DNA from: Eubacteriales bacterium
Lineage (GTDB): Bacteria; Bacillota; Clostridia; Oscillospirales; SIG627
Length of the DNA stretch: 64,000 nt
Assembly: GCA_045590715.1 (NCBI GenBank)
Contig: JAZNRO010000124.1
Coordinates: 960 to 64,959, forward strand
Direction: 5' to 3'
This document shows, in pieces, positions 4,828 to 53,746 of this stretch. How positions within the stretch are numbered: the first letter of the stretch is position 1; the number at the start of each line of letters is the position of its first letter. The notes under the pieces are model-generated. The model made no database searches and was not told where the DNA came from. It was given only the letters and a program-made list of their open reading frames with translations. The position numbers and the translations under genes are program-made.

Positions 4828-4945
4828 ACCGGATCTCCTTTATCTATATATCTTATAAAATTTTATCACAAAAGAAAAACAAATTCAAGGCTTAGCATAA
4901 ATTCTAAAAAGAAAAAGCAAACTATAAGAAAAAAGGAGTTCAGTG

Positions 4946-5116
4946 ATGAAAAAAATTAAAATCAATCCCAAAGACAGAAAACCCCGTCCGGTATTTGAAA
5001 CGGGGCCCAGCGATATGATCCGCTTCCCTCCCAGCAAAACCGATCCGGAAGGCTGGTACACCGGTCTTCCCCTGGATTTCAAGGATCGCCCCACGCAGGA
5101 CGCAGATGATCTGTAA
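4946..5116 (+). CDS. Small hypothetical protein, 56 aa (not in ORF track)
   Basis: ATG preceded by AAGGAG 7 nt upstream and followed by a terminator hairpin. Translation: MKKIKINPKDRKPRPVFETGPSDMIRFPPSKTDPEGWYTGLPLDFKDRPTQDADDL. Confidence 0.5.
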   Translation: MKKIKINPKDRKPRPVFETGPSDMIRFPPSKTDPEGWYTGLPLDFKDRPTQDADDL

Positions 5117-14452: not shown

Positions 14453-16681
14453 CTACTTTTTCTTTTTCTCTACCCGGGACATTTCTCTCTGGGCAATAAC
14501 AAGGGACTGATAAATACCCTCTTTTGCCACCAGTTCTTCGTGAGACCCTACCTGGGCTACGGTTTTCTCATCCAGTACCAATATCTTTGTGGCGTTACGA
14601 AGAGTGGAAAGTCTGTGAGCGATAGCAATGGTAGTTCTGTCTTTACAAAGATAAGCCAGGGAATCCTGGATCATTTTTTCCGTTTCGGTATCAAGAGCGC
14701 TGGTTGCTTCATCCAAAATGAGGATCTTGGGATCGTGCAAAATGGCGCGGGCAATGGCAATTCTCTGCCGTTCACCGCCGGATAAGGTATAGCCCTTCTC
14801 CCCTACCAGAGTATCGTATCCATCCGGCAGTTTCATAATGAAACTGTGGGCGTTGGCAAGGCGGGCGGCGCGGATCACCTCGTCAAAGGTGGCATCCGGC
14901 TTTGCATAAGCCAGATTATCGTAAATGGTACCGGAAAAGAGAAAGGTTTCCTGGAGCACCACACCGATCTGGGAACGAAGACTGTGCTGGGAAATATCCC
15001 GCACGTCCACGCCGTCGATGAGAATACGGCCTCTTTGCACGTCATAAAGACGCATAATGAGGTTAATTAAGGTACTCTTACCTACACCGCTTCGTCCCAC
15101 GATACCCAGCATTTCGCCGGGACCTACGGAGACGGAAACGTTTTCCAGCACGTTTTCATTTTCATCGTAGCCAAACCAGATATTCTCTACGTCGATCTGA
15201 CCTTTTACGGTAATGTCTTTGGCGTCTTTGCGGTCAGCCACGTCGGGATCTTCTTCCAGCACCTCAAATACTTTATTCACTGCCGTCATCGCCTGCTGGA
15301 TCCTACGGGGATACATAGCCATAGAACGAAGAGGAGTATAAATGAGACTGACGAAGGAAGAAAACATAGTAAGCTGACCGATGGTCATATTTTCTTTTAA
15401 AATTTCATTTCCCGCATAATAGAGCAGAATAAAATTGCCGATCTGAATGAGATACTCTGCATAAGGAACAAGCTTGGCCCAGGCTGTTTCATTGCGCACT
15501 GCAATGTTCCTTTGGGCGCTGATGGCTTTGTCATACTTTGCGATCTCATTTTTCTCCGTGCCGAATACCTTTACCACTCTCACGCCCTGGAATACGTCGT
15601 GGAGAACGGAATTAGCGTTGGCATTTTCCACCCAATGACGGCGGTAAAGACGATGATTGCGGTGCCATACAAAGCGGAAAAGCAAAATCACAAAAGGCGC
15701 GGGGATCAAAATCATCAAAGCCATTTTCCAGGAATAGGAGAAGAGCATCACCGCAACGAAAACGATAATGAAGACCTGCTCAATGAGATTGGGCAAAAAT
15801 CCCGTAAGAAAGTTTGAAATAACAGTGGTATCCGAAGATACGCGGTTGATCAGATCGCCGGCAGTATGACGGGAGATACCCGCAACGGACAAAGACTGGA
15901 TCTTGGCATACAGTTCTTTACGCAAAAGCACCACCGTATGGATGCTGACACGGGATAAAATAATATTGCGCAAAATGGTGGAAAGGCTCATGAGAAGACG
16001 GAGAGCCGCCATAGAAAGAACAATGATGATAGCGGGGGTAAAATTGGAAAGCACCGATGCAGGATCACCGGTATTTAAATAATTGTCTACAAAATCACCC
16101 TGCAGCATAGGAAGCCAAAGGTTGGTCAGAGAATGCAAGGTGAAAAGAAGCATGGAGAAAAGGATCAGTCCCATCTGCCCTTTCACAAGGCGATACATTT
16201 TCCCTGCCGCGCTCTTTTTTTCTCCGCAATGGGGACAGCGGGCGCTTCCCTTCAATAGCGGCCTACGGCACTTGGGGCAAACCGATTCCCGAGGCACGAA
16301 CTGCACCTCTTCCGGTTTTAATACGCCGTCGGATACTTCTTTTAAAATACGAGTAAGCTGGGAAAGGTTATCCTTTCCGGAACCGAACAGACGGCAAAAT
16401 TCCTGCCACTGTCCGTCATAAAGAATCATGCAAGCGGCTCCGCCGAAAAAGGGTTCGTAACGGGCATCGGAAATTTTATCAAAAGGATAGCATTTTCTCT
16501 CGCCGCTTTCCAGTGCTACGGTATAAAGGCCTTTTCGGCCAAAGAGGACAAGGGTATCTTTTCCCTTCCCCTTTGAATCTAAATTGGCAAGGAAGGAAAA
16601 GAGTACCTTCTCCGACAGATCCTTGGTAGCAGAAGCGATTTCTTCCCGGATCTTTTCATCAAAAAGTACAGACTGTTCCAA
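14453..16681 (-). CDS. ABC exporter half-transporter (TMD-NBD) with N-terminal zinc-ribbon extension
   Basis: 742 aa. About 170-aa pre-TM extension ending in CPKCRRPLLKGSARCPHC. Six-TM region. Walker A GRSGVGKST, signature LSGGERQR, Walker B ILILDEATS. Confidence 0.88.
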   Translation of the reverse strand: MEQSVLFDEKIREEIASATKDLSEKVLFSFLANLDSKGKGKDTLVLFGRKGLYTVALESGERKCYPFDKISDARYEPFFGGAACMILYDGQWQEFCRLFGSGKDNLSQLTRILKEVSDGVLKPEEVQFVPRESVCPKCRRPLLKGSARCPHCGEKKSAAGKMYRLVKGQMGLILFSMLLFTLHSLTNLWLPMLQGDFVDNYLNTGDPASVLSNFTPAIIIVLSMAALRLLMSLSTILRNIILSRVSIHTVVLLRKELYAKIQSLSVAGISRHTAGDLINRVSSDTTVISNFLTGFLPNLIEQVFIIVFVAVMLFSYSWKMALMILIPAPFVILLFRFVWHRNHRLYRRHWVENANANSVLHDVFQGVRVVKVFGTEKNEIAKYDKAISAQRNIAVRNETAWAKLVPYAEYLIQIGNFILLYYAGNEILKENMTIGQLTMFSSFVSLIYTPLRSMAMYPRRIQQAMTAVNKVFEVLEEDPDVADRKDAKDITVKGQIDVENIWFGYDENENVLENVSVSVGPGEMLGIVGRSGVGKSTLINLIMRLYDVQRGRILIDGVDVRDISQHSLRSQIGVVLQETFLFSGTIYDNLAYAKPDATFDEVIRAARLANAHSFIMKLPDGYDTLVGEKGYTLSGGERQRIAIARAILHDPKILILDEATSALDTETEKMIQDSLAYLCKDRTTIAIAHRLSTLRNATKILVLDEKTVAQVGSHEELVAKEGIYQSLVIAQREMSRVEKKKK

Positions 16682-16699
16682 TTTTTTCTCCTTTTTGCT

Positions 16700-17212
16700 T
16701 TATAAGTAAAGTTCAATTTTGGAATGGCTCTTTTTGTCCATTCTCTCAATGCTCTCGATCTCATACCGACAGCCGTCTACGTCCACTACATAGGCTCTGT
16801 CTTCGCCCAGGCGGAGAATACTTCTGTGAGGATCTTTTACCGTGAATTTCCGAAGGCCGTAATCGGTTTCGCAATCCCAGAAAGAAGAGCCGAATTTCTC
16901 TTCCAGCTTCACGATCTTTAAGATCTTGGGTGCAAAATATTTCTTTTTCAGTTCTTCCTGAATGAGATTTTTCGTATCCTCATCAAAATCGGAAAGAGCG
17001 CGGATCATTCCCACTTCTTCCTTTGCTTCATTCTGGACACAGATGTATTCCGTTTCCGTTTTAAAGGGAAAGGCCAGGGAAAGGAAGGCTCTGCCCTCAA
17101 AATCTTTTTCCCGGATCCGTACCATCAAAAGGCCGGTGGGAGAAAGAAAGAAATTGCTGTTTTCCCCGTTTAGCAAAAGGGTATCTGTCAGTTTATCCAG
17201 TCCTTCTATCAT
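16700..17212 (-). CDS. Soluble 170-aa protein, DUF1854-like (assignment from memory)
   Basis: No signal peptide or TM. Sandwiched between the two ABC genes with 8- and 18-nt gaps. Motifs LSLAFPF, KKYFAPKILKI and DVDGCRYEI resemble DUF1854 as I recall it. Confidence 0.55.
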   Translation of the reverse strand: MIEGLDKLTDTLLLNGENSNFFLSPTGLLMVRIREKDFEGRAFLSLAFPFKTETEYICVQNEAKEEVGMIRALSDFDEDTKNLIQEELKKKYFAPKILKIVKLEEKFGSSFWDCETDYGLRKFTVKDPHRSILRLGEDRAYVVDVDGCRYEIESIERMDKKSHSKIELYL

Positions 17213-17220
17213 GGTAACTC

Positions 17221-19512
17221 CTATTCTTCAATTCCGATGGTTTTCAGTGCTTCCATCTGGAGTTTATAAAGCTTATGATATACCCCTTCTTTTTCCAGAA
17301 GGGTCTTATGGGTTCCCTCTTCTACCACCTTGCCGTCCTCTACTACAATGAGAGAATCCGCATCACGAAGAGTAGATAAGCGATGGGCAATAATGAGGGT
17401 AGTACGATTCTCAGTGATCACCTGCAAGGCATCCTGGATCTTCCGCTCGGTTTTGGTATCCATAGCCGCGGTAGCCTCGTCCAAAATGAGAATAGCCGGG
17501 TCCTTTAAAATGGCTCTGGCAATAGAAATTCTCTGCTTTTCACCGCCGGAGAGCATTTTTTTATCTACACCCACCTGGGTTTCATAGCCGTCGGGAAATG
17601 ACATAATAAAGTCGTGACAGCCTGCCGCTTTGGAAGCCGCCAGAACTTCTTCCGCGCCGGCTTCGGGGGAAGCGTAACGAATATTATCCAGGATCGTTCC
17701 TCTAAAAAGATAGGTTTCCTGGGATACGATGGCCACGTGGTCCCGAAGGGTCTTGAAAGATAAATCTTTGATATCCACGCCGTCAATGGTAATTTTACCG
17801 GACTGGGCGTCGTAAAGGCGGGTGAGAAGATTAGCAAGGGTGCTTTTGCCTGCGCCCGTATGACCTACGATGCCCAGGGTCTTGCCGGCAGGAACGGTAA
17901 AGCTTACGTCCTGGATGGTCTTTTTACCGGGGGCGTAGGAGAAATTTACGTGGTCAAAGATAACCTCGCCCTTTACCTTTTCCAGGGTAATAGCATCTTC
18001 TTTTTCCTTTACTTCCGGCTCCGTATCCATAATCTGGAAGAGTCTTTGGAGAGCGTTCATACCGTTGGCAAGATTGCTTAAAAAGTTAGCAAAAAAGCCA
18101 AGGGGTGTATAGAGCATGGAAAGATAGGAGATGAAAAGGCTTAAAACACCGAAGCTGATACCGGTACCTGGATGAATGGCACCGCGAAGAACCAGGTATC
18201 CGCCAAAGCCCCAAACCAGGTATACACCAAGGCGCATACTAAGATTTAACAGGGGGAAAATGGTACTGTTTCTCACGTTTACCCGGAAATTGGTGCGGGA
18301 AAGAGCGGTGCTATTGCGATGAAAACGGGCCACCTCCGCCTCTTCCCGGGAAAAGGCCTTTACAATGCGCATACCGCTCAAAACGTCGGAAAGGACGCCG
18401 TTGAAACGGGAGCGGTGGGTATGCATCTCCGCGTGCAAACGGCGGAACATCCGCAAGGTAAGATAATAGCCAACGAAAACGAAAGGAATGGGTATGAGAA
18501 TAAGAAGGGTAAGGGGAACGTTGATGGTAAACATCACCGCCATGATCCCCACCATCTGAATCACGTTGGTAAGGAAATAAGGCACACCGTCGCAGAAGAA
18601 CCAGTAAAGAGTTTCTGCATCGGAATTGATCTGAGTGATAAGTCTTCCCGTGTGGCGGGAGGTGAAGAAGGAGAAAGACAATCTCTCAAAAGAGGAAAAG
18701 ATGGTCTTTTTCAGATCGTATGAAACAAAGGCGGAAACGTGGGCGCCTACGATTCCGTTGATAGTGCCTACCACTGCCTGGAGAAGACCTGCCAGGGCAA
18801 CGGAAAGGACCAATATCATAATTTTTCCGTAAAGGGGGGAGCCGGGGGTCAAAACCTCGTCATACAAAACTTTGTTATTTAACAGCGGTACGACCACACT
18901 GATAGCGCCGGATAAAATTACCGTTAAAAACACCAAAAGGATCTGCTTTTTATAGCGGTAAAAAAAGGGCAAAAGCTTCTTTACCAGACTTTTTTTACTA
19001 AGGCACCGCTTACAAAGTTTTTTCTCCGGATCGTCGTAAGGACGGGAGCAATGAGGGCAGTAAGCTTTTTCCCTCTCTTCCCTTTGGCGAAGAGAACCGT
19101 TTTCTTTATAATACTCTACCTGAGAAGTAAAATCGTAAAGAACGCCTCTTTTCGCACAAGTGGTATAAAAAAGAGTCTCTTCTCTTCCGTCTTTCCTCAG
19201 AAGCACCACGCGGATAACGGAGATCTGCTCCTCACACTTAATCTTTTCAATTTCTTCCAGAGGAACAAATACGTAATCAAGCTCGGTAAAGACGGGCTGG
19301 CTTTTCCGGGCAGAAAAGAAAGAAGCACCTTTCTTCTCCGCAAGGCCGAAAAGGCAAAAGAGCGATGCGATGCCTTCCGCTGTCAAGACGGTATAGGCGT
19401 CACAATAAAGCTCTTCTCTTGCCATATCGGTCTTTATGAGAAGGAGTGCTTCATCCGTATTGATTCCCTTTTTCAGGAAAGCATTTTTTACTTCTTCCGG
19501 CAGATTGATCAT
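17221..19512 (-). CDS. ABC exporter half-transporter (TMD-NBD) with N-terminal zinc-ribbon extension
   Basis: 763 aa. About 190-aa extension ending in CPHCSRPYDDPEKKLCKRC. Walker A GHTGAGKST, signature LSGGEKQR, Walker B ILILDEATA. Confidence 0.88.
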   Translation of the reverse strand: MINLPEEVKNAFLKKGINTDEALLLIKTDMAREELYCDAYTVLTAEGIASLFCLFGLAEKKGASFFSARKSQPVFTELDYVFVPLEEIEKIKCEEQISVIRVVLLRKDGREETLFYTTCAKRGVLYDFTSQVEYYKENGSLRQREEREKAYCPHCSRPYDDPEKKLCKRCLSKKSLVKKLLPFFYRYKKQILLVFLTVILSGAISVVVPLLNNKVLYDEVLTPGSPLYGKIMILVLSVALAGLLQAVVGTINGIVGAHVSAFVSYDLKKTIFSSFERLSFSFFTSRHTGRLITQINSDAETLYWFFCDGVPYFLTNVIQMVGIMAVMFTINVPLTLLILIPIPFVFVGYYLTLRMFRRLHAEMHTHRSRFNGVLSDVLSGMRIVKAFSREEAEVARFHRNSTALSRTNFRVNVRNSTIFPLLNLSMRLGVYLVWGFGGYLVLRGAIHPGTGISFGVLSLFISYLSMLYTPLGFFANFLSNLANGMNALQRLFQIMDTEPEVKEKEDAITLEKVKGEVIFDHVNFSYAPGKKTIQDVSFTVPAGKTLGIVGHTGAGKSTLANLLTRLYDAQSGKITIDGVDIKDLSFKTLRDHVAIVSQETYLFRGTILDNIRYASPEAGAEEVLAASKAAGCHDFIMSFPDGYETQVGVDKKMLSGGEKQRISIARAILKDPAILILDEATAAMDTKTERKIQDALQVITENRTTLIIAHRLSTLRDADSLIVVEDGKVVEEGTHKTLLEKEGVYHKLYKLQMEALKTIGIEE

Positions 19513-28906: not shown

Positions 28907-29077
28907 TAGCTTTTTTGCAAAAAAATATTTTTTTATATTGTTATCTCTTTTTTTCTCCCGTTTTCTCTTAAAAGCTCGTTTTTTCTAAATTTAAGACTAA
29001 TTATTTTTAACAATTTAAAGACGGTATTTTTCATAGGTTTGCGGGAGACCTATGACGTAGAAATAAGAACATATAAC

Positions 29078-29171
29078 ATTTTGTAGGGGCGAAATGTGTT
29101 CGCCCGTCAAGGTTTGTGCAGATTTTGCGGACGAACACAGTTCGCCCCTACGGATTGATTGTTTTGCAGGC
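29078..29171. repeat. REP doublet, composite copy A (forward unit 29083-29105, reverse unit 29129-29151)
   Basis: GTAGGGGCGAAATGTGTTCGCCC ... GGACGAACACAGTTCGCCCCTAC plus a conserved tail. About 90% identical to 32736-32829. Confidence 0.8.
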
Positions 29172-29182
29172 TGTCGGAGATG

Positions 29183-29225
29183 AAAAAACAAAAAAATAGC
29201 TTGCTCCGAAGAGCAAGCTATTTTG
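29183..29225 (-). terminator. Terminator of the large-protein/59-aa-ORF unit
   Basis: Minus strand ATAGCTTGCTC-TTCG-GAGCAAGCTAT followed by TTTTTTTGTTTTTT. Confidence 0.75.
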
Positions 29226-29236
29226 TTTTGGTTTAA

Positions 29237-29416
29237 TTACCAGAGGGAAACGCCGCCGCTGATAACAGAGGAATCGGTAGTACCGGTGGTACCGGAACCG
29301 AGAACTGCATCAGCATTGCCGATCATTCCTGCATTGATTACAACGGAACCAGCAAGAACGTCTTCCTGCATGAAAGCGATCATTTCCAGAGCGGGTGCTT
29401 CATAAACTTTTTTCAT
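29237..29416 (-). CDS. 59-aa peptide ORF (not in ORF track)
   Basis: GGGAGGTG lies 7 nt upstream of the ATG, and the ATG is 15 nt after the upstream stop. Translation: MKKVYEAPALEMIAFMQEDVLAGSVVINAGMIGNADAVLGSGTTGTTDSSVISGGVSLW. Confidence 0.6.
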   Translation of the reverse strand: MKKVYEAPALEMIAFMQEDVLAGSVVINAGMIGNADAVLGSGTTGTTDSSVISGGVSLW

Positions 29417-29431
29417 TATTCTGCACCTCCC

Positions 29432-32401
29432 TTATGCGTTTGCTGCAACAGCAGCTGCCTGGATGTAGAAGAGGAATGCTTCAGCAGCTTCATCGGTTTC
29501 AGCAGCCATCTGTGCAAGAGTTGCAACGGAGCCGCGGAATTCGAAGTAAGCACCGCCTTCGTAGCCGTCCTTAACCTTCAGAGCGAAGTTTTCTTCCATA
29601 TTCTGAGCAGCGAAGTACAGGTCGATAGTGATAGTCTGAGCATCGGTATCTACAACAGCCTTATCAGCCCAATCCATAGCGTTGAAGGTAACCATCAGAT
29701 CGGTGGGCATAGTAGAGAGAGTCAGAGTGAATCTAACGCCGGTAACGTTGGTCATGATGAAGTCAGCCTTCAGACCGGTAACGTCTGCCTGCTTTTCACC
29801 CTTTTCCAGGGAGAAGTCATATTCTTTAGCTTCAGCTTCGTAAGCGGAGGTGAAGCCTTCTTCATTTGCACCGCAAAGGTTTACAAGAGCCTGAGCCCAG
29901 GTCTGCCATGCACCGTCCAGCTGTTCTGCACCGAGAGCAGCGATGGTAGCAACAGACAGTTCAACGTCGGAAGCGAGAGAGCCGCCGAAGGTGAACGCGG
30001 TGTTGAAGTTGGGATAACCAACTGCGTAGGTAACTACGGAGTAGTAGGTTTCGTCGTAATCAGCGAGACCTTCTTCAGGATCTACAACAGAAGTACCGTT
30101 CATAAGGATGTCGTAGGTAAAGCCATCGATAGCATTAACTTCTTCTTTCAAGAACAGGAAGCGAATACCAAGAGCGGTATTGTTGTCGTCCATGATAACA
30201 GTAGCAGAAGCAGGAGCTACGGTGGTAGGAGCGGGAACGTAACCGTCGGTTACGTAGATGTCGCCGTTTTCTTCAACAACCTTACCAACGTTGGTCTCAT
30301 CGGTACCAGCCTGAGTGGTGGTAACAGTGAGGTTGCCAGCTGCGCCTACGAAGAGGATGCTGTAGGTGTCGGTATCAGCCCAAGAACCGGTGTTACGAAC
30401 AACAACGGAACCGGTAGCATTATTTACGGTGATCTTAGCCTGATAGAAGTCAATACGACCGCCGTTCATAGAGAAGCTGTCGATTTCGAGACCATCAGTG
30501 TTGGAACCGAACTTAACGATATCGGTAGCTTTGGTGCTCACAACTTCAAAGGTAGAAGAAGCAACAGTGGTATCAGCCTGCTTCTTGGTGATCATTTTTT
30601 CGAAATAACCGTCAGAAACGATGGTCTTAACGTCGCCTGCTACAGCGCCGGTCTTATTTGCATTTTCTGCATAGAAGAGACCTTTGAACTGAGGATAGTT
30701 TGCGCCGGCAAGAGCATTTTCAGAGGTGCCTTCTTCATAGTCTGCTGCCTGACCGGTAATACCACAAATATTGTTGGTAATATTGATAGCCTCAGTGCTC
30801 TTGTTCTGTACGCCACCGTGGAAGGTGGACATCAGGATACCTGCAGTGATATTGTTTACGATATCAGCGTAGGTGTAGTAGCGAGATCCGAAGAACGCGC
30901 CGTTAATGGTACCGCCATTGATGTTGTTGGTAGCGGGTTTTGCATCTTCGCCGCTTACAGAACGGTTCTCCCATACGGAAGCACCGGAGTAATTATTGAT
31001 GCTAGCGTTGCCTTCCAAAGTGAAGGTGTAGTTACCAGTTACGTAACCGTTAAGGCTAGAAGCTCTGGTAGCCATAACATCACCGGTAACAACTGCGTCA
31101 CCGCCAACGGTGATAGAGAAGTCGCCGATGAGGAATGCATCGCAGAAGCCCTGAACGGTGCCGATTACGTGACCGCCGAGAACGTTGATCTCGCAATCGC
31201 CATAGAAGAATTCAGCGGTAGTGCCGCCGCCATTGTTATCTGCATAGATGTTAGCAACGTTACCGGAGTAAACGGTAACTTCTGCCTGACCAACGGGCTT
31301 ACCGAGAACCTGGAACATATTGATGCTATTAAAATCAGCAGTATCGGAATTTTCATTACCGTTATCGATGATGATCTTGGCATCAACTTCAAAAGGTCTA
31401 ACGGTAGCCTGTCTGTTTGCAGCCTCGGTCAGATAGTCAGCATTACCGTAAACGATTACGTCTTCGATTTCATTTGCGGGATCGCCGCCTCTCTGCATCA
31501 AGCCCTGGAAGGCTGCGATGTTTTCAGCGGTGAGATCAGAACCGGAAGCAGTAATGTCATCAGACTTACCGTAAGTACCGGAAGGAGTTGCAGCAACGCC
31601 GGCACAGGTAATAAAGGTGTTTGCAGTAGTTACGCTGGTGCCTTTACCGAAGATGAAACCGGTGTCAACAAAGCCGTCGCCGTCTTTGTCGTTAGCGGTG
31701 ATCTTTTCGGGCTGAGCTACGTTGCTAGCCTGCCAGTTGTAGAAAGTATCTCCGCCATAAGCGTCAGCATTGAAATAAAGTTTCTTGCCTTCTGCGGGAG
31801 TGGGAAGATTTACGTCATGGAAGGTAACCAGACCGGAACCTGCCTGGATGTAAGCGTCTTCACCAGAAGTAACGGAGAAGGTCACATTGGTGAAGAAGTA
31901 ATCATTTGCAAATTCTAAACGATCGGTCTTGTTGATCTTGAGGGTAGAAGCTTTGTCCGCTTCAATACCTTCAATGACGATGGGGAGTTTGGTGTTGTCT
32001 TCTCTGAAGATAGTCATCGCACCGAAAGCGGTTTTGCCACTCTTACCGGTGTTTTTACCGTCTGAAAAGGCAGTCAGAGAGTCCTTGAATTTTACAACGA
32101 GGACAGATCCTGCTTCGTAGGCCTGGGTTCTAACAGCTGCATCAGTCAATACAGCGTAAAGATTCCAAGCGCTCTTCAGAACGGTGTCTTCTGAAGTCAA
32201 GCCTGCTTCATCAGCGGTAGCACCGCCGCCCAAAGCATAGTAGATTTTGGTCGCACCTTCTCTGGGGTCGGAGTAAGAATACTCGTACTCAGCGGGTGCT
32301 TCAGTTTCTTCTGCTGCAACGCCGGTAGCCAAGGCACCTGCTACACAGGAGAACAGCATCAAAACTGCGAGAAATACAGAAAGAAGTTTTGTAATTCTCA
32401 T
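29432..32401 (-). CDS. Large secreted protein (989 aa), beta-helix-like, unknown family
   Basis: ATG at 32401 with AAAGGAGG upstream. Sec signal MRITKLLSVFLAVLMLFSCVAGALA. G/T/A/N/V-rich. No anchor motif recognised. The track ORF adds 52 implausible N-terminal residues. Confidence 0.8.
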   Translation of the reverse strand: MRITKLLSVFLAVLMLFSCVAGALATGVAAEETEAPAEYEYSYSDPREGATKIYYALGGGATADEAGLTSEDTVLKSAWNLYAVLTDAAVRTQAYEAGSVLVVKFKDSLTAFSDGKNTGKSGKTAFGAMTIFREDNTKLPIVIEGIEADKASTLKINKTDRLEFANDYFFTNVTFSVTSGEDAYIQAGSGLVTFHDVNLPTPAEGKKLYFNADAYGGDTFYNWQASNVAQPEKITANDKDGDGFVDTGFIFGKGTSVTTANTFITCAGVAATPSGTYGKSDDITASGSDLTAENIAAFQGLMQRGGDPANEIEDVIVYGNADYLTEAANRQATVRPFEVDAKIIIDNGNENSDTADFNSINMFQVLGKPVGQAEVTVYSGNVANIYADNNGGGTTAEFFYGDCEINVLGGHVIGTVQGFCDAFLIGDFSITVGGDAVVTGDVMATRASSLNGYVTGNYTFTLEGNASINNYSGASVWENRSVSGEDAKPATNNINGGTINGAFFGSRYYTYADIVNNITAGILMSTFHGGVQNKSTEAINITNNICGITGQAADYEEGTSENALAGANYPQFKGLFYAENANKTGAVAGDVKTIVSDGYFEKMITKKQADTTVASSTFEVVSTKATDIVKFGSNTDGLEIDSFSMNGGRIDFYQAKITVNNATGSVVVRNTGSWADTDTYSILFVGAAGNLTVTTTQAGTDETNVGKVVEENGDIYVTDGYVPAPTTVAPASATVIMDDNNTALGIRFLFLKEEVNAIDGFTYDILMNGTSVVDPEEGLADYDETYYSVVTYAVGYPNFNTAFTFGGSLASDVELSVATIAALGAEQLDGAWQTWAQALVNLCGANEEGFTSAYEAEAKEYDFSLEKGEKQADVTGLKADFIMTNVTGVRFTLTLSTMPTDLMVTFNAMDWADKAVVDTDAQTITIDLYFAAQNMEENFALKVKDGYEGGAYFEFRGSVATLAQMAAETDEAAEAFLFYIQAAAVAANA

Positions 32402-32501: not shown

Positions 32502-32530
32502 ATTCTATCAAAGAATAATCTTTTCGTCAA
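32502..32530 (-). promoter_or_regulatory. Sigma-A-like promoter of the large secreted protein gene
   Basis: Minus strand TTGACG, 17 nt spacer, TAGAAT. The 5' UTR is about 95 nt and contains two hairpins. Confidence 0.55.
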
Positions 32531-32735
32531 CCTTTTCTCATTATTTAATTTTAACAAAAATAAAGTTCACAATTTGTTCAGCTTTGCTTTTCGTCCCAAG
32601 ATCTAGCAAAAAGGTTTAAATTCCGGCATTTTTTGCTATATGTGGAAATTCCTTCCTTTTATTATATATAGAGAAAATATGAGTTTTGCATTGAATTTGC
32701 GGGCCGTCGGGGATGTGCACACAAGCACACATAGT

Positions 32736-32925
32736 ATTTTGTAGGGGCAAACTGTGTTCGCCCGCCAGGGTTTGTACAGATTTCACGGGCGAACACAGTT
32801 CGCCCCTACGGATTGATTGTTTTACAGGCGAACACAGTTTGTCCGTACGGGTTGTTTGCGTTGCGGGCGAACACAGTTCGCCCCTACAATAGTTTGTTTT
32901 ATGGGTGCACAAAGTTTGTCCGTAC
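32736..32925. repeat. REP array (composite copy B 32736-32829 plus three further units)
   Basis: Units at 32741-32763 (forward), 32787-32809, 32826-32848, 32865-32887 and 32904-32925 (reverse or degenerate). A second palindrome, GTCCGTACGGG, is interleaved. Confidence 0.8.
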
Positions 32926-32969
32926 GGGTATGTGTGAGCAAAATAAAAAAAGACCCCGAGAGGTCTTTT

Positions 32970-33494
32970 TTATTCAACGTATAATTCATCTTCCCGCCAT
33001 TTTATCGGATTGGAATAGATATAATTGCAAATTTTCACATATTCTTCCTCGGAACGGATAACGCGATCATAGAACGAACGTTGAAATACAGATTGGCCTA
33101 TGCTTTTTGTTATTTTCCCTTTGAATTGCTTCACCATCTGCGATACCGTAGGGGCGAACTGTGTTCGCCTGTCATCTATCTTTTCGATTCGCAATACTAA
33201 ATGAATATGATTGGGCATAATCACATAATAATCAATCTTGACATTTTCGTAAACAGTGTTCCATCGCTCTAATTCAGTTTCAACGCAAATGCCAATAGAA
33301 GACAACGGTAAATTTTGCGGGCGAACACAGTTCGCCCCTACATGCACATAATCATATTTTCCAATTTCAAAACCGTTTTTCCACAAAATCGGGCTTTTGG
33401 CTTCGGTACAAATGGTGATGAAATATCTGCCCTCAGAAGAATAATCGTGCTTATCCCAACGAATTTGCTTTCTTATTTTTAAATCTTTATTCAT
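32970..33494 (-). CDS. REP-associated tyrosine transposase (RAYT / IS200-like Y1 HUH protein)
   Basis: 174 aa from MNKDLKIRK. HUH-like MPNHIHLVL and Tyr motif YIYSNPIKW. The ATG overlaps the prmA TGA (ATGA). A REP array lies about 45 bp beyond its stop. Confidence 0.78.
   Translation of the reverse strand: MNKDLKIRKQIRWDKHDYSSEGRYFITICTEAKSPILWKNGFEIGKYDYVHVGANCVRPQNLPLSSIGICVETELERWNTVYENVKIDYYVIMPNHIHLVLRIEKIDDRRTQFAPTVSQMVKQFKGKITKSIGQSVFQRSFYDRVIRSEEEYVKICNYIYSNPIKWREDELYVE
33148..33169. repeat. REP unit inside the RAYT CDS
   Basis: GTAGGGGCGAACTGTGTTCGCC. Read on the minus strand it encodes RRTQFAPT. Confidence 0.75.
33319..33341. repeat. REP unit inside the RAYT CDS (opposite orientation)
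   Basis: GGGCGAACACAGTTCGCCCCTAC. Read on the minus strand it encodes VGANCVRP. Confidence 0.75.
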
Positions 33495-34441
33495 TTCTTT
33501 AAAGTAAGGCAGACCCAGCCGCCGCTGCGGTGAGTATCGGAGAGGAGAAAACCGTTCTTTAATAAAATAGAACGGATCTCCTCTTCCCTTTCTTCCAAAA
33601 TACCGGAAGCAAGAAGGGTGCCGCCCTCTTTCAGAGCCTTGAAAAGATAGGGTGCCATTTCGCCGATGATACCGGCTACGATATTGGCGCAAATGAGATC
33701 AAAGTCCTTGCCCATTTCCTCCCGTTTATCAGAATCGGAAATGATATCGCCACAGATAAAGGCTTTTTCCTCTATCACAATACCGTTTTTCTCAAAATTT
33801 TCCCGGGCGGTGCGTACGGCGGCTTCATCAATATCCACCGAGATACACTCTCCTGCGCCCAGTTTCATAGCGCCGATACCGAGAATACCGGAGCCACAGC
33901 CCATATCCAAAACGCGATCGCCTTTTTTCAGGGAGCGCTCCACTCCCTCCAGGCAAAGGCGGGTAGTATCGTGAGTACCGCTACCGAAAGCGGCGGCAGG
34001 GTCAATATCAATGACGGCTCTATCCCCTACCTCTTTGGCGCTGACCTCTTCCCAGCAAGGCTTGATGAAAAGGCGCTCTCCTACGGGGAAGGGATAAAAG
34101 TACTGTTTCCAGCGGGTATCCCAATCACTATTTTCTACCAGAATGATCTCACCGCTGACATCAGAATAACCCAGGTTTTCGCAAACGCCCAAAAGGAAGG
34201 ATAAGATCTCCTCCGCGCGGGGTCGATCGGAAACGTCAAAATAAAATTTAATTTCCGGCGGGAGATCCTGCTTTTCAAAGAGATCATCCTCAATATAATC
34301 GCAGAACATTTCCCCGGCGGATTCTAACAGATCGGAATGATCCAGGATTTCAAAAGTGTCATACCCCCCTGCAACAAGAAAGGTCGATACAAGATCGACC
34401 TTTTCTTTGGGGAGCTTGATTTTCAGCTCTAAATAATCCAT
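33491..34441 (-). CDS. prmA: Ribosomal protein L11 methyltransferase
   Basis: 316 aa. FGSGTHDTTRLCLE and the SAM motif VLDMGCGSGILGI. Confidence 0.92.
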   Translation of the reverse strand: MDYLELKIKLPKEKVDLVSTFLVAGGYDTFEILDHSDLLESAGEMFCDYIEDDLFEKQDLPPEIKFYFDVSDRPRAEEILSFLLGVCENLGYSDVSGEIILVENSDWDTRWKQYFYPFPVGERLFIKPCWEEVSAKEVGDRAVIDIDPAAAFGSGTHDTTRLCLEGVERSLKKGDRVLDMGCGSGILGIGAMKLGAGECISVDIDEAAVRTARENFEKNGIVIEEKAFICGDIISDSDKREEMGKDFDLICANIVAGIIGEMAPYLFKALKEGGTLLASGILEEREEEIRSILLKNGFLLSDTHRSGGWVCLTLKK

Positions 34442-51405: not shown

Positions 51406-52691
51406 AAAATCCCCGAAGCCTAGCCCTTTCTTCCCTTGTGAAAAGCACGGAAAAAGGAAAATATACCAATCTGGAACTGGATGCCACCCTGGACAAAGAA
51501 AGCCTTTCTCCGGAAGACCGTGCCCTTTATACCAGGCTGTATTTAGGCGTAATTGAGAAGAAGATCACCTTAGATTATCTCTTATCCCGCATTTCTACCA
51601 TACCTTTAAACACCCTGGAGACAAGAGTGCTCTGTCTACTGGAGCTGGGCGCTTATCAGATTCTGTACCTTGACGGAATTCCCGATCACGCGGCAGTAAA
51701 CGAAAGCGTAATGCTTGCAAAAAGGGAAAACCCCGGATGCGTCTCTTTTGTCAATGCGGTGCTTCGGAAACTAGCGGGCGAAAAAGAGGAGATCTTATCC
51801 TATTTAAACCTTTCCGGAAAGAAGGGACTGTCCCTTCGCTACGGCTATCCCAGATGGCTTATTACCCTTTGGCAAGAGGCCTACGGCAAAGAAAAATGCC
51901 TGGAGATTTTAGAGGCGCAGAACACCCCTGCCCGCCTTACCATTCGCGTAAATACCACCAAGATCTCCCTTTCGGAATACAAGAAAAAACTGGAAGAGGA
52001 AAAGATCCCCTTCCACGAAAATAAACTCTGCAAAAATAGTCTTACCATCGAAAAAAATCTATCCCCTACTGCTCTTTTTGGATTTTCCGAAGGTCTTTTC
52101 TTCGTGCAGGATGCGGCGGCAGGCCATGCGGTAGATAAGCTGGACGTAAAACCATTTGATCGGGTACTGGATCTATGTGCCTCTCCCGGCGGAAAAAGTT
52201 TTGCGGCGGGGATTCAAATGGAAAACAAGGGCGAGGTCCTTTCCCTGGAACTTTACGAATCCAGAGTCCCTCTCATCAAGGAAGGGGCGCGACGCCTGGG
52301 ACTTAGCTGCATCAAGGCACAGCAAAACGATTCTTCCAAAAAAAGAGAAGAATGGAAGGACTCCTTTGATAAAGTTATTTGCGACGTTCCCTGCTCCGGC
52401 TACGGAACCATTGCCAAAAAGCCGGAAATTCGGCACAAAGACCCGGAGGAAGCAAAAGGTCTGCCGGAAATTCAGCTTGCCATTTTAGAGGCCGGCGCAT
52501 ACGCCCTAAAGCCGGGCGGAAAGCTGGTATATTCCACCTGCACCTTGAATCCGGAAGAAAATGAAAACGTAACTTCTGCCTTTTTGTCCCGCCACCCGGA
52601 ATTTCGGAGAGTGGGAGAATACGAGACCATCTTCCCCAAAGGCGGAGAGCACGACGGCTTTTTCTGTGATCTTATGGAGAAATCAGTATGA
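51402..52691 (+). CDS. rsmB: 16S rRNA (cytosine967-C5)-methyltransferase
   Basis: NusB-like N-domain plus methyltransferase motifs (DLCASPGGKS, DVPCSG, YSTCT). Confidence 0.9.
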   Translation: MKNPRSLALSSLVKSTEKGKYTNLELDATLDKESLSPEDRALYTRLYLGVIEKKITLDYLLSRISTIPLNTLETRVLCLLELGAYQILYLDGIPDHAAVNESVMLAKRENPGCVSFVNAVLRKLAGEKEEILSYLNLSGKKGLSLRYGYPRWLITLWQEAYGKEKCLEILEAQNTPARLTIRVNTTKISLSEYKKKLEEEKIPFHENKLCKNSLTIEKNLSPTALFGFSEGLFFVQDAAAGHAVDKLDVKPFDRVLDLCASPGGKSFAAGIQMENKGEVLSLELYESRVPLIKEGARRLGLSCIKAQQNDSSKKREEWKDSFDKVICDVPCSGYGTIAKKPEIRHKDPEEAKGLPEIQLAILEAGAYALKPGGKLVYSTCTLNPEENENVTSAFLSRHPEFRRVGEYETIFPKGGEHDGFFCDLMEKSV

Positions 52692-53746
52692 ATGAAAAAA
52701 TAGACTTGCGCTCTCTTCTTCCCGAGGAACTGAAAGAAATTCTGAAGGAAAACGGTCTGGAGCCTTACCGAGCCGGCCAGATTTTGGCCTGGCTGGAAAA
52801 AGGCGCAGGCAGTTTCCAGGAAATGACCAACCTTTCCAAGATCGCAAGAGAGAAACTTCATAGTATTTTTGATATTTCCAATATGATGGAATGTGAAACT
52901 CTGGTTTCCAAGATCGACGGCACTACAAAATACCTCTTCACCCTGCCGGACGGAGAGTATATTGAGAGCGTTCTGCTTCACTACAAGCACGGTTACAGCG
53001 TATGCCTTTCTACCCAGGTAGGATGTAAAATGGGGTGCAGTTTCTGCGCTTCCACAAAAGCCGGTTTCTGCCGGAACCTATCTGCCGGTGAAATTTTACT
53101 GCAAATGGTAGAGATCACCCGGGATAAAAGAAAACTGGATCCGGATTTTCGCATCGGCCACGTAGTACTGATGGGCATCGGAGAGCCTCTTGACAATTAC
53201 GATGAAGTGATCCGCTTTTTAAAGCTTTGTAATGCAAAGGAGCTTTTCAACATTGGCTACCGCAACATTTCCCTTTCCACCTGCGGCCTGATCCCCAAGA
53301 TCAAAAAGCTGATGTTTGAGGACCTTCCCATTACCCTATCCATTTCCCTGCACGCTTCCAATTCCCCGCTTCGGTCAGAGCTCATGCCGGTAAATAAGAC
53401 CTATCCTTTGGAAGATTTGATCCCGGTATGCAAAGAATACACCAAGAAGACGGGCAGAAGAATTTCTTTTGAATATGCTGTCATTGCCGGGCAAAACGAT
53501 ACCCCCCGCCACGCCAAGGAACTGATTTTTCTTTTATCCGGCTGGCTCAATCACTTAAATTTAATCCCCATCAATCCCACCAAAGAAACAAATTTTCAGC
53601 GTAGTGATCGCAAAAGCCTGGAAAATTTCCAAGGAATACTAGAAAAAGGCGGGATCTGTGCCACCATCCGTCGTACCATGGGCGCAGATATTGAAGCCGC
53701 TTGCGGTCAGCTTCGCAGAGAGAAACAGATCCGCACAAAGGAGTAA
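52688..53746 (+). CDS. rlmN: 23S rRNA (adenine2503-C2)-methyltransferase, radical SAM
   Basis: CxxxCxxC radical SAM motif (GCKMGCSFCAS) and a C-terminal GADIEAACGQL. Confidence 0.93.
   Translation: MNEKIDLRSLLPEELKEILKENGLEPYRAGQILAWLEKGAGSFQEMTNLSKIAREKLHSIFDISNMMECETLVSKIDGTTKYLFTLPDGEYIESVLLHYKHGYSVCLSTQVGCKMGCSFCASTKAGFCRNLSAGEILLQMVEITRDKRKLDPDFRIGHVVLMGIGEPLDNYDEVIRFLKLCNAKELFNIGYRNISLSTCGLIPKIKKLMFEDLPITLSISLHASNSPLRSELMPVNKTYPLEDLIPVCKEYTKKTGRRISFEYAVIAGQNDTPRHAKELIFLLSGWLNHLNLIPINPTKETNFQRSDRKSLENFQGILEKGGICATIRRTMGADIEAACGQLRREKQIRTKE

Follow-up and report, generated by a model that had tools for sequence, protein, structure and literature searches.

A conserved small gene with a leader-like N-terminus lies directly behind the gene for a giant secreted protein in uncultured Clostridia-like bacteria

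Background

The DNA analysed here, called the window throughout, is a stretch of 64,000 nucleotides (nt) from an Eubacteriales bacterium (Bacillota; Clostridia; Oscillospirales; SIG627), taken from NCBI GenBank assembly GCA_045590715.1, contig JAZNRO010000124.1, positions 960 to 64,959. On its minus strand, directly behind the gene for a giant secreted protein of 989 amino acids (aa), lies an open reading frame (ORF) of 59 codons. We find that this ORF is a real gene, held under purifying selection and furnished with its own ribosome-binding site, and that it belongs to a family whose members accompany homologues of the giant protein. The N-terminus of its product resembles the leaders of peptides that are made by ribosomes and modified after translation (RiPPs), more exactly those bound by RiPP recognition elements (RREs). 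The reading that we favour, at a probability of roughly 0.35, is that the peptide resembles a precursor, is guided by its leader and has a function bound up with the giant surface protein.

Identification of the small gene and its family

The small gene occupies 29237..29416 (-), with 59 codons followed by TAA, and its product is MKKVYEAPALEMIAFMQEDVLAGSVVINAGMIGNADAVLGSGTTGTTDSSVISGGVSLW, exactly the 59 aa quoted in an earlier note that had been made from the letters of this DNA alone. One database record (P0001) holds a protein identical to the window peptide and another (P0002) a 1-aa variant. The Shine-Dalgarno sequence GGGAGGTG (29424..29431, minus strand) lies 7 nt before the ATG (29416-29414), which itself stands 15 nt past the TAA (29434-29432) of the 989-aa gene, both as previously described. 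That upstream gene runs from 29432 to 32401 on the same strand, its start Met being residue 53 of a listed 1041-aa ORF. An intrinsic terminator with a 14-bp stem, a 4-nt loop and a T-run (29193..29224, minus strand) ends the two-gene operon, beginning 12 nt beyond the stop of the small ORF rather than the approximately 15 nt first noted. A promoter-like site, TTGACG-17-TAGAAT with a TG (32502..32530, minus strand), is by its match to the consensus a candidate for the operon promoter, and the downstream gene rplM has its own perfect -35 and -10 elements. Because of these signals the big and small genes make up a self-contained two-gene unit.

A single-sequence word-index search matched the peptide to itself only. 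Access to the family came first through synteny, since small ORFs with like ends follow the big protein's homologues, and then by profile search, which yielded 12 distinct peptides, close variants being added by cluster look-ups. A phmmer search over 1.8 billion representatives gave one extra homologue, and scans of genome and metagenome DNA added only an orphan 35-aa relative and a fragment at locus L009. The approximately 20 distinct homologues fall into three subfamilies, of 59-60 aa with the C-terminus ISGGVSLW, of 48 aa ending in EIGKIPLF and of 50-51 aa ending in EEFGxIxL[W/F]. The earlier note had proposed a homologue search with a tabulation of neighbours, and the search brought out conserved, syntenic homologues. 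The family is rare, with about ten clusters at 90% identity among 5.8 billion, and has no match in Pfam, NCBIfam, PHROGs or the sequences of the PDB; tblastn against plasmids found nothing. It is an unnamed family confined to a narrow group of uncultured, spore-forming, gut-type Firmicutes.

The signals around the gene recur in its relatives. GGAGG stands 5-9 nt ahead of the ATG in all eight loci compared, and a hairpin with a T-run follows the stop in the seven related loci that have downstream DNA, the eighth (L003) ending 4 nt past the stop. Differences between homologues are concentrated at third codon positions, and the ratio of nonsynonymous to synonymous substitution (NG86 dN/dS) is 0.14-0.49 in ten pairs. 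Of the sense frames, that of the small gene alone stays open throughout the nine loci tested, and the codon-level comparison with other frames that the earlier note had asked for speaks for the gene. We therefore regard as scarcely credible the explanation that the ORF is spurious, or is a read-through or frameshift tail of the big gene. It is true that the small ORF is in frame with the big gene in the window, with TAA and 5 codons between them. However, the ORF has its own ribosome-binding site and ATG in each of the eight loci and the selection just described, and Rfam has no family at threshold for the region, giving only sub-threshold hairpin look-alikes at palindromes and at the terminator. 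Spacer length does not keep to multiples of three from locus to locus, so that the frame relation is not conserved; this excludes read-through or frameshifting.

Three further ORFs were seen in connection with the family. An antisense 60-aa ORF (29223-29405, plus strand) mirrors the small gene, and 8 of 9 homologous loci have an open -1 frame; artefacts of this antisense-phase kind are usual in coding regions, and the ORF is no second gene. At L009 56-220, on a contig of 1.2 kb with low coverage, a 54-aa ORF starts with the first 24 residues of the family and continues with unrelated sequence; it is probably an assembly chimera or a decayed copy. The orphan 35-aa relative, MKKAYEAPSLDITVFTSSDDILVGSDVIIDTGDLF, is found at L004 6503-6610 and L010 5153-5260 with its own ribosome-binding site and terminator. 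It sits in a human-gut Clostridia metagenome-assembled genome, between tsaA-like and ThuA-like genes, and no homologue of the big protein is present on the 16.6 kb of its contig that were examined. A peptide of this type can therefore exist without the giant gene.

Coupling to the giant secreted protein

In all 12 informative loci the small gene follows a homologue of the 989-aa-protein gene at a distance of 11-18 nt. Adjacency was compared in the window, L001 (two pairs), L002, L003, L005-8, L011, L012, L013, L014, L015 and L016, and the spacers outside the window measure 11, 12, 13, 14, 14, 14, 17 and 18 nt. Genes outside the pair differ: the window and L011 have rplM/rpsI, other loci have MntP, a Fer4 protein or a prophage lysis module, and the third subfamily has a GH28 gene. 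Divergence of the peptide follows that of the big protein almost 1:1. Between subfamilies the identities of big protein and peptide are 38/39, 27/30 and 34/33%, and within subfamilies 58/69, 63/60 and 68/72%. The L001 genome contains two paralogous pairs, each with its own peptide. Nothing else speaks as strongly as the co-divergence and the cognate paralogous pairs, taken together, for a function of the peptide in company with its own big protein. An assembly partner or chaperone of the large protein had been suggested in the earlier note; a partnership has strong genetic support, from strict adjacency and co-divergence, and the word chaperone is a guess.

The giant protein begins with a Sec-type signal peptide. 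AlphaFold2 predicts, at a modest mean predicted local distance difference test score (pLDDT) of 61, a long beta-helix, a beta-sandwich, two helices, a second beta-sandwich and two terminal helices. Foldseek gave weak matches to autotransporter passengers, pectate-lyase-like phage beta-helices and the NEAT-linker-NEAT region of IsdH, and the PDB sequence search gave only weak matches, to phage gp5 beta-helix repeats. No Pfam family was matched even at an E value of 5, nor any NCBIfam family at lax thresholds. The C-terminal ~260 residues are conserved in all three subfamilies, with invariant columns reaching to within 9 residues of the end, and cross-subfamily identity over the last 200 residues as against the whole protein is 37 vs 38%, 28 vs 27% and 35 vs 34%. 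The peptide was also considered as a detached repeat of the giant protein, and this was rejected (hhalign P 0.24).

The signal peptide of the giant family (window 32311-32401, minus strand; L001, L002, L003 and L005) is unusually conserved although paralogues share only 27-38% identity, with M1, R2, K5, L6, S8, L11, A12, V20, L24, G27 and A30 invariant. This conservation may point to a dedicated processing or export route.

In L001 (10001-12996, 13938-17626 and 21405-22832) two complete pairs of different subfamilies are accompanied by a third gene of the big family, of 1617 aa, which is homologous over its first ~290 residues and runs off the available DNA. In L014 (1-7000) the end of a prophage, with a 2575-aa tail-like protein, an amidase with LysM and a holin, lies directly upstream of the pair. 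MntP is downstream of the pair in both L014 and L001; upstream in L001 is Fer4, and no prophage genes were called there.

Small accessory genes beside genes for large secreted or surface proteins are found in tapA-sipW-tasA, CdiA/CdiI and staphopain/staphostatin. The pairs studied here share with these systems the tight operonic pairing, and their paralogous copies are likewise cognate and co-diverging. The peptide, however, is far smaller, is predicted to be disordered, lacks a signal peptide and carries an RRE-type motif, and no domain of the toxin, protease or TasA-like kind can be recognised in the giant protein. A cytoplasmic immunity or inhibitor peptide directed against a harmful activity of the big protein, in the manner of polymorphic toxins and their immunity proteins or of staphopain and staphostatin, would account for a small gene directly 3' of a giant secreted-protein gene, in one operon and cognate in each paralogue. 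We consider it very unlikely, for the giant protein has neither a toxin nor an enzyme domain, and its C-terminus is conserved between subfamilies and not swapped as in polymorphic toxins. A short, disordered peptide with conserved ends is also unlike the folded and fast-diverging proteins that typically confer immunity.

Organisation of the peptide

Three parts can be distinguished in the family alignment. The leader-like N-terminus (codons 1-25; 29342..29416, minus strand) follows the pattern MKKxYxxPx[L/A]E..F..[DE][VI]L..S(G) and is the best conserved part. It includes the motif YxxPx[L/A], which in the window peptide is formed by Y5, P8 and L10. All 12 sequences have M1, K2, Y5, P8, L21 and S24, with either L or A at position 10. 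The second part is a variable linker rich in Gly, Ser, Thr, Asn and Asp (codons 26-53; 29258..29341, minus strand), which differs in length and composition and is 9-11 residues longer in the window subfamily than in the subfamilies of 48-51 aa. Beyond residue 24 the fraction of these five residues is 0.38-0.64. The third part is the C-terminal motif G-x-[IV]-x-L-[W/F] (codons 54-59; 29240..29257, minus strand), with the stop codon directly after it; G54 and L58 are invariant and each of the 12 full-length members ends in W or F. The earlier division into a leader and a low-complexity core is upheld by the alignment as far as it goes, but it had missed that the last 6-8 residues, with G54, L58 and the aromatic end, are conserved as well.

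The maximum Kyte-Doolittle mean over 19 residues is 1.38 for the window peptide and 0.40-1.28 for its homologues, compared with 2.57 for the signal peptide of the big protein. From these low means the peptide has no transmembrane helix or classical signal peptide, and the window peptide has zero Cys, in agreement with what had been read from the sequence before. Net charge in the family is acidic, from -1.5 to -6.5. With the 12-sequence alignment AlphaFold2 predicts a disordered peptide with a mere hint of a C-terminal hairpin (pLDDT 57); the linker, at pLDDT 52-63, has almost no predicted secondary structure.

C-terminally derived peptide signals of Gram-positive bacteria, such as PapR, SHP and XIP-type peptides, offer a comparison for the conserved end. 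The small gene might accordingly encode the precursor of a signalling peptide, co-expressed with a surface protein, from which the C-terminal 6-8 residues (GGVSLW, GKIPLF, GNISLW) would be released as a hydrophobic pheromone. The small size of the peptide, a conserved hydrophobic-aromatic end placed exactly at the stop and C-termini specific to each subfamily are in keeping with this idea. It is nonetheless improbable: the peptide has neither a Sec signal nor a hydrophobic N-terminus, receptor genes of the RRNPP, Rgg or histidine-kinase kind adjoin none of the loci, and the presumed signal is less conserved than the 25 residues at the N-terminus. A Crp-family regulator gene does lie nearby, but it is part of the conserved backbone and outside the module.

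Resemblance to RRE-bound leaders

Discrete RREs bind the motif [Y/W]xxPx[L/V/I/A/F/Y] in the precursors of lasso peptides, of pyrroloquinoline quinone (PQQ) and of linear polyphosphorylated peptides (LPPs) (PMC13381572, PMC10368454), and the Y and P of this leader motif are essential for RRE binding (PMC13381572, PMC10368454, PMC12710340). All 12 members of the present family conform to it, with Y5 and P8 invariant and L or A as residue 10. The K-x-Y-E-x-P-x-L start had earlier been likened to leader regions of radical-SAM-modified peptides. The start does match a documented leader motif, of the lasso, PQQ and LPP kind that binds RREs; its likeness to radical-SAM leaders is unsupported, as the peptide has no Cys and the only Radical_SAM match in the window is RlmN (52688-53746).

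The family resembles LPPs, a newly described group from Bacillota (Nat Commun 2026; PMC13381572). LPP precursors are likewise short (35-200 aa), start with MKK.Y..P and have a conserved N-terminus with an RRE-binding YxxP. Some of their cores are rich in Gly, Asp and Asn, and some end near an aromatic residue, for example MTKKPYAPPSVLSHQKVSFETKASGNDNGGGDGGGPGGNFWS. A conserved Ser follows the Tyr by 18 residues in LPPs and by 19 in this family. The LPP precursor of Bacillus sp. es.036 begins with MKKVYEAP and equals the window peptide over these 8 residues (PMC13381572 Supplementary Data 1). An hhalign comparison of the family with LPP leaders gave P 1.7e-4 and a probability of 49.6% over 17 columns with a 3-residue gap, and a hidden Markov model of LPP leaders placed the family members at ranks 1-12 of the 1620 ORFs in all DNA examined, though only at E values of 0.024-1.4. 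An LPP precursor may be encoded apart from its cluster, and SpI+RRE pairs that lack determined precursors occur in Clostridia (PMC13381572 Supplementary Data 1).

Two other groups of precursors share features with the family. Lasso precursors also have Y-x-x-P-x-[L/A] near the N-terminus after Lys residues and a leader-like segment of ~20 residues, their motif YxxPxL lying at -17 to -12. PqqA and MftA, in which an aromatic residue conserved at the C-terminus serves as the substrate, are small as well, and their N-terminus is bound by an RRE. The [Y/W]xxP motif is present in PQQ leaders too (PMC13381572). Unlike them, the peptides studied here have no adjacent radical-SAM/SPASM enzyme or RRE, and across subfamilies they end now in W, now in F, which speaks against one single cofactor product. 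A double-glycine-leader bacteriocin was considered and rejected, since the GG/GA/GS register with hydrophobic residues at -4, -7 and -12 fits poorly and there is no C39 exporter.

Evidence against a leader-guided precursor

Several results weigh against reading the peptide as a leader-guided precursor. The match to the LPP profile is short, at a probability of ~50%, and is driven largely by MKKxYxxP. The LPP consensus YxxPxVLxHQxIxFETxxS is not followed: the family shares with it only YxxPx[L/A] and a downstream F and S, and the LPP hallmarks L-x-H-Q and F-E-T are absent from the family. In addition, the C-terminus is conserved here and variable in LPPs, and the constant neighbour here is a giant secreted protein, without a SipW-like peptidase, an RRE, an HprK-like kinase or an NTP transferase nearby. 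By sequence comparison, then, the resemblance to LPP leaders appears real but short, and as evidence of homology it is inconclusive.

The lasso comparison meets similar difficulties. Reading the sequences directly, we found no conserved Thr/Ile/Val(-2) in the family and no constant register of Gly/Ala/Ser/Cys-1 with Asp/Glu at 7-9. With S24 taken as core residue 1, the window peptide, P0013 and P0017 are without an acceptor at 7-9. Among the NCBIfam lasso models, one of 13 members matches one model (lasso_cyano, E 0.098) and no others were hit, and no B1, B2 or C genes appear in the window scans or among the Pfam matches of L001, L005 and L014.

Genes for maturation were looked for as well. 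Pfam and NCBIfam were run against every window ORF of at least 120 aa and against those lying in the intergenic gaps. The 64-kb window has no RRE, no SipW-like, S24 or S26 peptidase, and no kinase or nucleotidyltransferase of maturation type; neither does it have a lasso cyclase or protease, a radical-SAM maturase or a C39 exporter. Its HPr kinase has both HPrK domains and a whiA-murB neighbourhood, which marks it as the full-length housekeeping type. Such genes were likewise not found in L001, L005, L004 and L014, so that those around the orphan 35-aa relative (L004) too include none for maturation, and tblastn with SpI and RRE examples found nothing in any locus examined. The remark of the earlier note that no maturase, protease or exporter adjoins the small gene is confirmed. 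An RRE domain inside the giant protein was also tried and rejected, at an hhalign probability of 0.2%. Lastly, cleavage, modification, export and binding of the peptide are all putative.

Possible modes of action

An alternative that takes the coupling at face value is that the peptide is an unprocessed cognate partner. In its full length it would bind its own giant protein, the conserved ends serving as docking motifs and the linker as a tether; docking could be, for example, by beta-strand addition to the C-terminal beta-sandwiches, the role could be in assembly, folding or anchoring or that of an inhibitory subunit, and the likeness of YxxP to RiPP leaders would be convergent. Strict adjacency across three paralogous lineages, near 1:1 divergence, and the retention by the L001 pairs of their own peptides all suit this explanation, as do the conservation of both peptide ends and not of the N-terminus alone, and the want of maturation genes nearby. 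The disorder predicted for the isolated peptide would suit a ligand that folds on binding. However, the giant protein has a strong Sec-type signal peptide and the small peptide none, so that the two would be expected in different compartments. The stand-alone 35-aa relative, with no big-gene homologue on 16 kb, is also hard to reconcile with an obligate partner, and the N-terminus is specifically like RRE-bound leaders. On balance we hold the unprocessed partner to be the nearest rival, only a little less probable than the reading that we favour.

A leader-guided precursor resolves the compartment mismatch of the plain partner and agrees with the orphan relative. According to this favoured reading a single promoter and a single terminator would serve both genes, and translation of the small one would start from its own ribosome-binding site. 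The leader would then dock, in the form of a beta-strand, on a PqqD-like recognition protein whose gene lies elsewhere in the genome. A cut might follow near the invariant L-A-x-S-G, a site that would fit the -3/-1 rule of type I signal peptidases, and the peptide might possibly be modified there too. The released acidic peptide of 24-35 residues would be exported and would act at the cell surface with its cognate giant protein, for which the aromatic C-terminus may be the contact point.

A more specific version of the leader-guided precursor goes further and is, in our estimate, unlikely. It supposes a new two-component surface system in which an RRE-guided leader peptide is hard-wired to a giant secreted protein of beta-helix and immunoglobulin-like architecture and not to a biosynthetic cluster. 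A SipW-like, archaeal-type signal peptidase and RRE pair encoded elsewhere might, for example, process both the peptide and the signal peptide of the giant protein. The matured peptide would prime, anchor or decorate the giant protein, giving a RiPP-style analogue of TapA/SipW/TasA matrix assembly.

Surroundings of the gene pair in the window

The window is otherwise of housekeeping character, with hprK, murB, whiA, recG, priA, def/fmt, rlmN, a PASTA kinase gene, gerA and ispH-rpsA among others. Repetitive extragenic palindromic (REP)-like units, GTAGGGGCGAACTGTGTTCGCCCG, occur in clusters on both flanks of the big and small gene cassette (29038-29171, 32696-32929 and 33146-33345), and a 134-nt direct repeat with 81% identity lies on both sides of it. 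An ORF at 32970-33692 on the minus strand has a sub-threshold C-terminal match (residues 149-231) to a REP-associated tyrosine transposase; its 5' part, which overlaps prmA, is probably not real. L011, the closest relative, is without the REP insertion between the small gene and rplM, the distance there being 237 nt as against 394 nt in the window.

At 14453-19512 on the minus strand, 10-14 kb from the module, two genes for MsbA-like ABC exporters (742 and 763 aa) flank a DUF1854 gene. The N-terminal extensions of these exporters (~170-190 residues) gave weak zinc-ribbon matches only and no Peptidase_C39. An MsbA-like exporter is part of LPP clusters (PMC13381572), but these two lie outside the module and have no evident link to the peptide. 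A 57-aa ORF between hprK and a rubrerythrin gene (4943-5116, plus strand) contains P-V-F-E-T-G-P-S, recalling FETxxS, but it has no YxxP and no family match, and was set aside as a chance occurrence.

Implications

Cut-offs on annotation length hide genes of this kind; the present ORF fell below the 60-aa threshold of the ORF track. What emerges is a small peptide of leader type whose genetic surroundings have not been described for peptides of this kind, with a putative link to RiPP recognition. Two genes in one operon, present in three paralogous versions, make a clean test case whether the peptide is a processed precursor or an unprocessed partner. If it is a partner, the giant secreted proteins of these uncultured Clostridia-like bacteria, themselves an unannotated family, would have a small subunit that is obligatory and had so far escaped recognition. 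If the leader-guided precursor is correct, RRE-type leader peptides would not be confined to classical biosynthetic clusters and could be slaved to a structural surface protein. The family would then supply candidate substrates for the orphan SpI+RRE pairs of Clostridia, and would hint at a surface or matrix function for peptides of the LPP and paeninodin type.

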